A stretch of 64,000 nucleotides of DNA from Eledone cirrhosa (lineage: Eukaryota), in contig OZ024743.1 in assembly GCA_964016885.1 (NCBI GenBank), forward strand, positions 311,240,001 to 311,304,000. The letters run 5' to 3'. The notes under the pieces are model-generated. The model was not told the DNA's origin. It saw only the letters and a program-made list of their open reading frames with translations, and searched no databases. The translations under genes and the position numbers were made by a program. Below are positions 11,974 through 35,046 of the stretch, one piece after another (the first letter of the stretch is position 1; the number at the start of each line of letters is the position of its first letter).

Positions 11974-12022
11974 GCTTCTACAGGATTAGAATTGTTTCAT
12001 TCGGGAGAAATCATCAGGAAGC
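11974..12022 (-). ncRNA. Type I hammerhead (family C)
   Basis: RC: gcttc CTGATGA tttctcccgaat GAAA caattctaatcctg TA gaagc. Confidence 0.75.
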
Positions 12023-24071: not shown

Positions 24072-24124
24072 GAGATTCCTGATGATTTCTAAAGAATGAA
24101 ACGGTTCTCGTCCTGTAGAATCTC
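24072..24124 (+). ncRNA. Type I hammerhead (family C)
   Basis: gagattc CTGATGA tttctaaagaat GAAA cgg ttctcgtc ctg TA gaatctc; 7 bp stem I. Confidence 0.8.
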
Positions 24125-30188: not shown

Positions 30189-30856
30189 TCCGTAGTAAAC
30201 AGCTGGCGAAGGGAAACTTCTCTTGTTTACGTCCCGATTACCTTCTCACACTTCGTTTTCAGTAACCACACAGCCTCGCCTCTTTACTGCTGTGAGCTCC
30301 TCTCTACATGTCTTGCTCGATTTGTTGTCCCTGGCCGGACTCATGTCCCACCACGGATCGACTCCCTCCCTTTCTCTCTCTATTTCTCTCCCTCTCTCTC
30401 TCTCTCAACCTCTGTCCTCTAGCCCCTCTCACTTCCGGTTTCTCCGTCTTTCTCTCTCTCTACACTCACTTTACTAAGAATCGGCACGGAAAAACCTTGC
30501 TCCTCAGTTATTACGGCCACCGGACTTATACCCGGTTACTTACATACATGTGCCATTGTCCTGTGTTCCCCCTTCTATCGGTATGTTTACTTCGTTTTTT
30601 CCGCTTTTCCTGTTTTCTTCTTCCTTTTTTCTTTTTTCTTTTTTCCTCTCTCTTCACTATCAATTCTTTCTCTCGAGGCCTTTTGATAGTTAAAAGGCTC
30701 TGGGCGCGCTACGGATCGATGTTCTGTTTTAAGCACCGAAACATCTAAGTTCCGTAGTAAACAGCTGACGAAGGGAAACTTTTCTTCTCTTGTTTCCTTC
30801 TCTTGATTACTTTCTAACACTTCGTTTTCAGTAACTACACAGCCTCGCCTCTTTGC
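30189..30856 (+). mobile_element. ~562 bp CT-rich unit with terminal direct repeat
   Basis: tccgtagtaaacagctg.cgaagggaaact..cacttcgttttcagtaac.acacagcctcgcctcttt at 30189 and 30751; flanked by TA repeats. Confidence 0.8.
30708..30775 (+). ncRNA. Candidate permuted/pseudoknotted hammerhead (family X)
   Basis: ctacgga tc gatg TT ctgttt taagcacc GAAA catc taagt tccgtag t aaacag CTGACGA aggg. Confidence 0.45.
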
Positions 30857-31106: not shown

Positions 31107-31800
31107 AGTCGTGTCCGCTTAAGAGTATATCGGATAAGGGTATAGGCCGCTTAAGAGTATAGCATAATCAATTCCCGAATTTATGTACTATGTTTTGTAC
31201 AGTGCATGGGTCCGCTTAAGAGTATATCGGATAAGAGTATAGTTCGCATAAGAGTATAGCATAATCAATTCCCGTTTATATATTTTCTATGTAATTTAAT
31301 CCGAATAAGAGTATAATGAATACGGTAAAGTAAATTGGGCTTATAATTGTTTCCACTTTTGGCACCAGGCCATCAAATACCCAGTACATTACTGGTACTT
31401 TATTTTATCGACCCCGTAAGGATGAAAGGGCTTATAATGTAACATAATCATTTTAAAACAATTCAAAATGAAATACGATGATGTCATTTATACAACCATT
31501 CTAAAAACAATTTAAAGTTTAATATATGCAAATAAAAAATAATAATTCATTGTATCATAAAAATGTCTTTGAAACGCTCTGCTTTATCCATTACTCAAAG
31601 GTTAGTATGTATTTTTATATTTATAATATGAATGTGCATAGGTACCTAATATAACTTTAATCATTTATCAATATTTTAGATCTCTGGAAAAGAAGGAATA
31701 AATGCTTTGTTGACTGTACGGTCCTATATGATGCAATCGTTTGAAAATTTTGAAAATTATACTCTGTCTGAGATCGAAGAAATTGATTGAAAAAAAATTG
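31107..31800 (+). mobile_element. pogo/Tigger-like DNA transposon 5' end
   Basis: TA|CAGT start, multiple subterminal taagagtata repeats, MSLKRSALSITQ at 31563 resembling a psq-HTH start; SINE fragment at ~31345-31430. Confidence 0.55.
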
Positions 31801-31814
31801 CGAGCAATCGAGTG

Positions 31815-31884
31815 CCAACCGGAGGTATATGGTCTTTAAAGCGATGAAATACCAATGATGGTTGGAAGATCACTGATGAAGGAC
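31815..31884 (+). ncRNA. Candidate permuted hammerhead with kink-turn (family Y), copy 1
   Basis: ccaacc gGA ggta TA tggtctt taaagcgat GAAA tacc aat GA t ggttgg aagatca CTGATGA agg. Confidence 0.5.
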
Positions 31885-32459
31885 TAACTTTATTCATATG
31901 TAACCCATTTGCAACCACGCAGGACGTTTATTCTCATATTTACACATATGTTTTCCCCCACTGTGACCCGTCTATTTCGTTCTTACTGCTTCCTCTTTCT
32001 CTGTATCTTTACCCTCTCTAACAGTCACTCTCTCTGTTAGCCTCTTCCTCACCCTTCACTCACTCACTCTCTGTTATTACCTCTCCTCCTCCTCATCCTC
32101 CTCCTCCTCCTCCTCCTCCTCCTCCTCCTTCTTCCCGTTTGACCTGTGCGTAATTCTTTTCTTTCGCACGCTTGGTCAGGCTGGTTCGCTTTTTTTCTCT
32201 CTCTCGTCACCGAATTCACAGACTAGATTTCTTCTTCCTCCCGTTAGACCTGTACGGAATTCCGTCCTTGCTCACATTCCAACCAGGTTTGATGGTCTTT
32301 ATTCTCTCTCGTTCACGATTTCACCGAACTTATATTCATGGAAATTTGGGACTTGACTCGTTCTTCCTCACTTTTCGTTGCTTCACAATCTTTGTTTGTT
32401 TACACTCTCGTGTCCCCTTTATTTACATGTCCCAACGACTTTTTTAGCAGTTGCTCGCA

Positions 32460-32529
32460 CCGACCTGAGGTATATGGTCTTTAAAGCGATGAAATACCGA
32501 TGATGGTTGGAAGATCACTGATGAAGGAC
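32460..32529 (+). ncRNA. Candidate permuted hammerhead with kink-turn (family Y), copy 2
   Basis: ccgacc tGA ggta TA tggtctt taaagcgat GAAA tacc gat GA t ggttgg aagatca CTGATGA agg. Confidence 0.5.
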
Positions 32530-32537
32530 TAACTTTA

Positions 32538-32594
<57 letters not shown>

Positions 32595-32610
32595 CATATA
32601 TACACACACA

Positions 32611-32742
<132 letters not shown>

Positions 32743-32782
32743 CATACATATATATATACACACATACACAAATACACACATA

Positions 32783-32828
<46 letters not shown>

Positions 32829-32835
32829 TATATAA

Positions 32836-35046
32836 CGCGAGGACCAAAAACGTGAGCGGTTCAGGATTGCTAGGCAATGTGTCAAGGAAAACCGTGATAT
32901 TGTCGGGGAGAAGTGTGTCCTTAATGATGATGGCGTACTTGCCATCACCGACGCTGATAAGAAGGTAGCTTGGAAGTGTCACTACGAAAGGCTACTAAAT
33001 AAGGAGAATAAATGGGAGAATAACAGTCTCCCCCACATCGATCCAATAGAGGAACCAGCAGTGCTAGTTGAAGGTAGTATAATAAGTAAGGCAATCAAAG
33101 ATATGAAGACGGATAAGGCGGCTGGGCCTTCGGAAATAGTTGCTGAAATGCTGAAAGCATCTGGAACGGTGGGACACACCATGGTCACCCGGATAGTAAA
33201 CGAAGTCATACAGAATGGGGTTGTTCGGAAGGACTGGCGTAACATCATCATCATTAACTGCTACAAGGGTAAAGGAGATGCCCTAGATAGGGGTAACTAT
33301 AGAGGCATTAAATTAATCGACCAGGTCATGAAGGTCACAGAAAAAGTAATAGCGCAACTAATCAGAGAGCGAATTGATCTAGATGAAATGCAGTTCGGGT
33401 TTGTGTCAGGTAAAAGTACCACAGACGCTCTTTTCATTGTACGACAACTACAGGAGAAGTACCTGGCTAAAAGTAAACCCCCTATACTTAGCTTTTGTTG
33501 ACTTGGAGAAAGCCTTTGACAGAGTCATCCGCTCCATTATCTGGTGGGCTCTTAGAAAACTAGGTGTTGATGAATGACTCGTAAGAGCTATACAAGCGAT
33601 GTATAAAGAAACAGTCAGCAAGGTTAGAATTAACAACGAATATAGTGAAGAGTTTAACGTAAAAGTTGGTGTTCATCAGGGCTCCGTTCTTAGCCTCCTA
33701 CTATTTATTATTGCCCTTCAGGCTATAACAGAGGAGTTCAAGACCGGCTGCCCATGGGAACTCCTATACGCAGATGATTTAACGCTCATAGCTGAATCAA
33801 TGGCTGAACTAGAGAAGAAATTCCAAACATGGAAGCACGGCCTAGAATCAAAAGGCCTTAAAATTAACCTGTCTAAGACTAAAGTTCTAGTTTGTAGGAA
33901 GGAAAATAGGGCACCGGTCCCATCTGGGAAATGGCCATGCTCAGTGTGTAGGAAAGGAGTAGGCAGAAACTCCATTTTATGTCCCAAATGCAAAGTATGG
34001 GAGCATAAAAGATGTAGTGGGATCACAGGTAAGCTAATTAAGAATATAGATTTTATATGTGGCCGGTGCTCTGGTGCAATAAGTAGCAGCAAGTGCAAGT
34101 GCCCACAGGATACTAGCTCATTCCATTACACAGATGGTTCTATAGAAATAGTGGACAACTTCCGTTACCTGGGTGACAAAATCAGCAGTGGTGGAGGGTG
34201 CTCTGAAAGTACAGTAGCTAGAGTTAGAACGGGATGTAAAAAGTTCAGAGAGCTTATACCACTATTGGTCGCTAAAGGGTTCTCTCTAAAAATGAAAGGC
34301 AGGCTGTATGATGCCTGTATACGAACAGCAATGTTACATGGCAGTGAGACTTGGGCATTGTGTGCAGAGGATATACGCAGACTGGAGAGGAACGAAGCTT
34401 GTATGCTCCGCTGGATGTGTAATAGTAATATTTGTGAACGGCAAAGCTTAAATGAACTAAGGGAGAAATTAGGAATAAGAGGGATCAGATGTTGTTTACT
34501 CGAGAGAAGACTACGTTGGTATGGTCACGTGATGCGCATGAAAGACGACAGCTGTATAAAAAAGTGCAGGGCGATAAAAATAGACGGTATCCACGGAGTA
34601 AGCAGCCCCAGAAAAACCTGGGACGACTTGATAAATTCCGACCTCACACACTTACACCTCTCCAAGAAAATGTCACTGGGCCGAGATCTTTGGCGCTACA
34701 CGGTAATACAGAAGACCCGCCTTGCCTAAGTACAAAGCGAAACCTACAGTCAGTAGGCACCTCTAACAAAAATACACCCCCGTCCACTACCCCTACCCCA
34801 TCTACACCACCCCTTTCAATGTAAAGTTATGTTGGTACCACAACATCCAGTCCGAAATAAATGAGGTCGTGTAGGTAACACGGTAAAAACCTCCCAGTCC
34901 ACACTGTAAACGTGGTTGGTGTTAGGAAGGGCATCCAGCCGTAGAAAACCCGCCAGACTGTCCTATACGAGCAAGACAACCAATCCTGCCTCAAGTGGGA
35001 AAATTCCCGTCCAAACCTATGCAAGCGTGGATGATGGACGTTAAAC

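Follow-up and report, generated by a model that had tools for sequence, protein, structure and literature searches.

A conserved kink-turn sequence as the probable hinge of a predicted type-SGC hammerhead ribozyme in an abundant (TA)n-targeting repeat of Eledone cirrhosa

The window considered here, a stretch of 64,000 nucleotides of AT-rich, microsatellite-laden animal DNA from the 3.0-Gb genome of Eledone cirrhosa, contains two 84-nt units (31815-31898 and 32460-32543) in which the parts of a likely hammerhead ribozyme are arranged in a scrambled order, raising the question of how the strand that leaves the far end of stem III could return to stem I. This link has been named as the unexplained part of the type-SGC hammerhead fold (PMC10085705). 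In both units, the order is P0, 3n-G-A, stem III, UA, stem I, crossover, GAAA, stem III, 3-nt bulge, G-A-3b, P0, 1 nt, stem I and CUGAUGA, where P0 is an extra helix; copy 2 repeats the layout of copy 1 at an offset of 645 nt, and the 30-nt core that the two units have in common produced no matches in 100 shuffles (Table 1). The answer that we favour, with moderate confidence, is that a conserved standard k-turn is the hinge of this hammerhead, so that the ribozyme, although scrambled, could form and cleave in cis, probably by means of Mg2+ and fold closure rather than protein. The k-turn would fold stem III sharply back, and P0 would lead the strand to the distal end of stem I, with a single unpaired nucleotide in between. 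With such assistance, a tandem transcript would fold in cis, be cleaved after UA, that is, after 31829 and 32474, and be processed into monomers, which the enzyme of a Naiad-type Penelope-like element (PLE) would copy into (TA)n. The k-turn together with P0 thus represents a different, testable answer to the question of the stem III-stem I link.

Table 1. Positions of the ribozyme features and neighbouring elements in the window
Feature	Position	Strand	Basis
Ribozyme copy of family X, with blocks in the same order and at the same spacing; plain 3-nt bulge, no k-turn	30709..30771	+	sequence
P0 (NC-side helix) 5' strand, copy 1 (ccaacc)	31815..31820	+	sequence; 5/6 P0 pairs changed on both sides
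k-turn non-bulged strand, copy 1: 3n (G), G2n, A1n (GA at 31822-31823)	31821..31823	+	sequence; family conservation
Hammerhead block S: stem III 5' strand (= k-turn C helix; ggta, 31824-31827) and UH	31824..31829	+	sequence, covariation
Predicted cleavage, copy 1	between 31829 and 31830	+	inferred by hammerhead analogy
Stem I strand 3' of the cleavage site	31830..31835	+	5/6 pairs with two-sided change
Conserved UUAA(A/U)G crossover and weak stem II strand (putative pairing)	31836..31845	+	family conservation
Block G: GAAA and stem III 3' strand (tacc, 31850-31853)	31846..31853	+	sequence, covariation
k-turn bulged strand: L1-L3 (AAU, 31854-31856), G1b, A2b (31857-31858), 3b (U)	31854..31859	+	sequence; family conservation
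P0 3' strand (ggttgg, 31860-31865) and 1-nt linker (31866)	31860..31866	+	covariation
Block C: stem I partner strand and CUGAUGA	31867..31879	+	sequence, conservation, covariation
Stem II partner region and ribozyme unit end	31880..31898	+	no clear covariation
Non-coding pyrimidine-rich body of the 645-nt monomer	31899..32459	+	sequence
Ribozyme copy 2; k-turn strands 32466-32468 and 32499-32504; box C/D-like U.U plus G:C	32460..32543	+	sequence
Predicted cleavage, copy 2	32474/32475	+	hammerhead analogy
(TA)n microsatellite adjoining the 3' end; likely target site	32541..32834	.	sequence

The original prediction placed a standard k-turn between stem III and P0, and the complete consensus is indeed present in both units. 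It also held that the differences between the copies leave the motif intact; there are exactly three, namely, 31817 A/G, which yields a G.U pair in P0, 31821 G/T at 3n and 31854 A/G at L1, and none of them touches either GA. Copy 2 had been described as box C/D-like, and it matches box D (CUGA) at four of four positions and box C at six of seven, the box C consensus being RUGAUGA. Given the dinucleotide frequency of the window, two GA would fall in this fixed register by chance with a probability of ~0.3%; the family-wide pattern is far stronger evidence against chance.

The two units belong to a (TA)n-targeting repeat with more than 10,000 matches in the genome. The exact 30-nt core accounts for 3,349 matches and a wider pattern for 10,418, with 0 for reversed-pattern controls. 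Family Y yielded 880 matches with the bulged GA fixed in the pattern and 480 with the other strand left free, the Z subfamilies were found by further patterns, and 57 matches to a 16-mer represent family X. A pattern with a purine after GAAA retrieved only mutated K and X copies and chance matches, and a 29-nt tandem repeat containing CUGAUGA (L131:1440-1580) mimics the search pattern. The monomers are non-coding, mostly spaced by 500-750 nt, arranged in tandem or inverted, and end at (TA)n. A ~90-kb array of ~515-nt Z-type monomers (G000:C1:81547312-81636418, L251-L274) carries the ribozyme motif in the monomers sampled. The motif is also found in contigs under five other organism labels, with differences at L1, L3 and 3b; the sole listed 1b/2b change among these comes from one low-depth contig.

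Lack of conservation of the two GA dinucleotides in the family had been named beforehand as the finding that would speak against a k-turn. Of the 165 K copies, 160 have GA at 1b-2b, 153 have it at 2n-1n and 148 in both places, whereas L1, L3, 3b and 3n each divide among several common states; 18 of 23 Z copies have the standard GA/GA, and the bulged GA is kept in 10,165 of the 10,418 genome-wide matches. Furthermore, C:G, described as a folding-permissive pair, occupies -1b:-1n in 161 of the 165 K copies. In a tree of 214 copies from K, Y and Z with intact P0 and 11-nt crossover field, we counted as inherited any change common to at least three copies: there are none at 1b, 2b, 1n and -1b/-1n and one at 2n, compared to 7, 3 and 5 at L1, L2 and L3, 7 at 3b and 11 at 3n. 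Within the catalytic core, N7 is the only position with any (three), and each of the 25 flanking columns has between 2 and 9, a control that is inflated by the gapless flanks. By this measure, G1b, A2b and A1n are as invariant as the catalytic core, in a sample of related copies, mostly from one chromosome, with a tree built on the same columns and with part of the Y copies obtained with the bulged GA fixed in the pattern. Among the first 100 of the 480 family Y matches, inspected by eye, A1n is kept in 96, and 2n is U in 70, G in 22, A in 7 and C in 1; 2n is the position where natural k-turns such as the ribosomal Kt-23 deviate, the two adenines being the functional core (PMC2790904, PMC5061560). 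The helices are similarly constrained: across 26 hand-picked representatives, excluding family X and one indel copy, 95% of cells in P0 and stems III and I are paired, compared to 27-52% in slid controls, and 12 of 17 pairs show two-sided change. P0 has been rewritten several times with its register kept. We conclude from these patterns that the k-turn sequence is real and under selection, within what is likely a ribozyme.

The succession of blocks S, G and C, with CUGANGA, GAAA and UH all present, is that of the type-SGC (non-circularly permuted) hammerhead, and stems I and III are present with covariation, as this type requires. The permutation (HRIMA-1 and variants) was described by Eckert et al. 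(2023; PMC10085705), and its members cleave in vitro; they are known from metatranscriptomes, and that study detected no SGC forms in the genomes of known organisms. The published descriptor requires C before GAAA, which is missing from 209 of 218 copies: position 11.1 is U in 176, A in 29, C in 9 and G in 4, with family X having C. The predominance of U and A at this position, unlike in the published SGC ribozymes, and a stem II without clear covariation count against the hinge reading; the G two places 3' of the core is near-fixed. In K, Y, Z and X alike, the crossover UUAA(A/U)G (31836-31842) varies hardly more than the catalytic core, and it occurs also in Acropora Naiads; no pairing partner for it was identified.

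Nor did we find the HRIMA-1-type helix that connects the 3' side of stem II with the return strand, and pairing with the 3' tail is not common to all families: for the bulged strand, it is possible in 109 of 165 K copies but seldom in Y (3 of 39), Z (2 of 23) or X (4 of 20), so that it was rejected as a general feature. The strand had been predicted to reach stem I with no linker. In fact, one unpaired nucleotide intervenes, and the zero-linker alternative, a 7-bp stem I, was discarded, the extra pair forming in only 30% of weighted copies.

The proposal that a sharp bend makes this topology feasible held in that a selected k-turn sequence lies where a bend would lead the strand back to stem I. 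The k-turn is not the sole route to the fold, as family X and other Naiads illustrate. In a rod model, which is crude and built on assumed lengths and angles, the minimum gap is 7-21 Å with a 50° kink versus 57-65 Å for a straight helix, a weak hint that the kink may bring the strand near stem I. Family X had been said to keep the bulge without the GA pairs. The window copy agrees; the family consensus retains the bulged-strand GA as well as the 3-nt bulge and pairs this GA with UC by Watson-Crick pairing, hence no G.A, in 11 of 14 in-register copies (C at 1n), other copies having a larger internal loop. C at 1n blocks the SAM-I k-turn, yet family X has spread with the same helix lengths, for which the rod model does not account and which weighs against the hinge reading.

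Comparable variation is seen in the Naiad PLEs (Craig et al., 2021; PMC8557442), for which the authors reported no canonical hammerhead and flagged ‘half cores’. We read the Naiad consensus file by eye, covering, of the 62 places with one spelling of the core, 1-15 and 17-46 and, of the 23 with the other, 1-15. There, Naiad_Ovul (marked HHR_half_core) and the preceding record (Naiad_Obim by metadata order) end in an SGC arrangement with a 3-nt bulge and a GA/GA k-turn. Their P0, stem III and stem I differ in sequence, 3b.3n is U.U, and the leader resembles that of K, Y and Z. By contrast, Naiad_Esco has P0 and an internal loop, a plain 3-nt bulge is seen in one further record, and a 12-bp stem III followed by a ~7-nt bulge and a P0 of ~9 bp in three from Acropora. 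Judging from these records and family X, P0 is present throughout, a hinge breaks it from stem III, and the k-turn is one form of this hinge among several.

The plain bulges and internal loops count against the hinge reading and lead to the alternative that survives best, although we regard it as unlikely: any flexible break between stem III and P0 would suffice, with GA kept for some other contact, or assembly would proceed in trans between tandem monomers, and a true 50° kink would be unneeded. Besides the cases of P0 without GA/GA described above, the frequent tandem arrays and the persistence of the bulged GA in family X despite its Watson-Crick pairing fit this alternative. However, it leaves unexplained why A1n, G1b, A2b and the -1 C:G are fixed while 2n shifts among U, G and A, and why Watson-Crick pairs are avoided at 3b.3n, and the uneven distribution of possible pairing between the bulged strand and the 3' tail also argues against it.

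If the k-turn is the hinge, it might close through ions or through a bound protein, and the 3b.3n pair bears on this choice. Scored by the FRET table of McPhee et al., the 165 intact GA/GA k-turns comprise 118 good Mg2+ folders (U.G 56, C.U 29, A.G 27, C.C 5, C.A 1), 21 with U.U and 26 poor ones, among which A.A, found in one K lineage, accounts for 22. C-G was seen in none, versus 17.6 expected under independence. Five of the seven non-Watson-Crick states seen fall among the six good ones, which would occur at random with a probability of ~0.02, the states being non-independent and C.A resting on a single copy. Conversely, 4b:4n is G:C in 114 of 165, and G:C at this position impairs ion folding, U.U with G:C being very impaired (Ashraf et al.); this G:C and the 22 A.A copies stand against closure by ions. 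The box C/D combination of U.U with G:C occurs in 7 of the 165 intact copies, copy 2 among them, and is not the family state. A riboswitch k-turn that is impaired as a duplex still folds within the whole RNA, and such context may likewise cover the poor 3b.3n states. Setting the FRET-good 3b.3n pairs and the C:G at -1 against the G:C at 4b:4n, we therefore consider most copies more likely to fold without protein, while a minority may be assisted by one.

The rival view, to which we assign a still lower likelihood, is that the k-turn is a site for the L7Ae-family protein 15.5K/Snu13, whose binding would be needed for ribozyme folding or RNA routing. Standard GA/GA k-turns in general bind L7Ae, L2 is a purine in 164 of 165 copies, copy 2 and six others have the combination that folds very poorly with ions only, and U.U is usual in the Z subfamilies and in Naiad_Ovul. 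Nevertheless, the general dependence on L7Ae/15.5K suggested by the original prediction is not favoured, because most copies have 3b.3n pairs that fold in Mg2+ alone (118 of 165); C-G is absent, the change of 3b to C is accompanied by a change of 3n to U or C, and family X has no k-turn. In family Y, 2n is mostly U and the contact of the G2n O6 is lost, yet L7Ae binds an A2n k-turn. The exception would be the box C/D-like minority including copy 2. A bolder scenario, which strikes us as rather unlikely but worth stating, is that the hammerhead of Naiads and of their non-coding parasites is caged, non-circularly permuted and closed by a k-turn, and that host 15.5K/Snu13 switches on its cutting in the lineages that resemble box C/D, namely, copy 2, the Z subfamilies and the octopus Naiads, the younger subfamilies evolving toward protein-free folding. 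If so, such lineages would constitute a natural protein-gated small ribozyme.

The tandem or inverted copies ending at (TA)n and the 3' end resembling, by eye, that of an autonomous element (Naiad_Ovul) are features of a non-autonomous Naiad/PLE derivative. No linked ORF that could represent the autonomous partner was found in the loci fetched from this genome, and a genome search with a Naiad_Ovul-derived motif gave one unconvincing match. Neptune-like and Penelope-like ORFs near some copies were rejected as partners, being on the opposite strand, separated by microsatellites or equipped with their own canonical hammerhead; for instance, the Penelope ORFs at L075:3000-4700, L050 and L063 are Neptune-like and encode a GIY-YIG domain at the C-terminus, and the copy at L075 has a canonical hammerhead of its own. 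Two pairs spaced by 2.9 kb, followed as another clue to the partner, proved to be a segmental duplication.

Just 5' of copy 1 lies a short inverted copy of the element's own leader (31791-31808), a typical Penelope-like 5' inversion, and a truncated family X unit (30190-30285), 560 nt upstream of the full copy, begins within P0 directly after (TA)n. Directly 3' of the (TA)n run, there is a reverse-transcriptase-like LINE fragment (32836-33400), which we take to be RTE-like and for which no link to the ribozyme is shown. Hammerhead-like cores in canonical order (CUGANGA ... GAAA), belonging to the short Penelope type, are found at 24079, 38585, 55327 and 55638 on the forward strand and at 12017, 48644 and 35230 on the reverse strand, so that several repeat families with ordinary hammerheads co-occur in the window with the scrambled ones.

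Signs of cleavage were sought at the ends of insertions. Ten copies genome-wide stop at the predicted site and then run into (TA)n, a count that comes without a neighbouring-position control and with TA microhomology. The 5' junctions of 128 unbiased copies fall into successive 17-18 nt bins upstream of GAAA as 21, 14, 4 and 4, a pattern that short truncated copies would also give, with the class of long copies being small. Overall, no clear cleavage footprint was seen at these genomic junctions. An Rfam search of the window gave no matches at the gathering score and only sub-threshold ones near the ribozyme copies, including a snoRNA at E = 2, and MFE folds recovered P0 and stem III but not the pseudoknotted core, placing CUGAUGA in a local hairpin in both copies with a program that does not model pseudoknots. 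These observations, together with the weak stem II, are what would be expected if the RNA did not cleave itself and the motif were a reverse transcriptase recognition signal or a passive relic, but we consider this very improbable, given that heritable variation in CUGANGA is confined to N7, U16.1 is fixed, H17 alternates between A and C and there is covariation in stems I and III, a signature of catalytic constraint, and that published SGC ribozymes of the same order are active in vitro.

In the open-access literature searched, we found neither a natural hammerhead with a k-turn nor the SGC form in animals. The k-turn and the SGC hammerhead are each known; their combination and the presence of SGC in an animal retroelement are apparently new. 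A very abundant mobile repeat thus carries an RNA of scrambled layout that is likely to cut itself, and the k-turn is predicted to bend this RNA shut, probably without protein. The natural series of variants (standard, Kt-23-like and plain bulge) allows k-turn folding rules to be tested by a cleavage read-out, and the ‘half-core’ motifs of Naiads, reported without canonical hammerheads, gain a concrete reading.

Among known systems, the metazoan non-LTR retrozymes (Cervera and de la Pena, 2020; PMC7229834) share with the present repeat non-coding tandem monomers with a hammerhead each and thousands of copies, but they have canonical type I hammerheads and form circles of 170-400 nt. Naiad PLEs are closer, having in common the (TA)n targets and the tandem and inverted copies, with Naiad_Ovul ending in the same SGC and k-turn behind a similar U-rich leader (PMC8557442); unlike them, the present repeat is non-coding and about 500-750 nt long. 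With type-SGC ribozymes such as HRIMA-1, it shares the block order, CUGANGA and GAAA, the UH site and the short crossover from stem I to stem II. Published SGC ribozymes, however, come from metatranscriptomes rather than an animal retroelement and have a 5-bp stem II and C before GAAA, whereas stem II is weak here. Furthermore, the return strand of HRIMA-1 is anchored by pairing 3' of stem II, whereas here it pairs 5' of stem III, via the k-turn, as P0; the HRIMA-1 alignment rows examined contain no P0, and the words ‘kink’ and ‘k-turn’ are absent from the main text of PMC10085705.

As for k-turns, family Y and Kt-23 both keep A1n, G1b and A2b, with 2n being U, G or A in family Y (PMC2790904, PMC5061560). 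Family Y often has C-G at 3b.3n (16 of 37 U2n copies), where T. thermophilus Kt-23 needs U.G, and its folding is therefore uncertain. The standard k-turns (Kt-7, SAM-I, U4 and box C/D; PMC4382518, PMC8191799, PMC5689011, PMC5061560) share with ours the C helix, the 3-nt bulge, G1b.A1n, A2b.G2n, a non-Watson-Crick 3b.3n and C:G at -1b:-1n. Whereas 4b:4n is mostly G:C here, as in box C/D, 3b.3n is mostly of the Kt-7/riboswitch type. Unlike in the known standard k-turns, the C helix here is the catalytic stem of a small ribozyme that is predicted to cleave itself.
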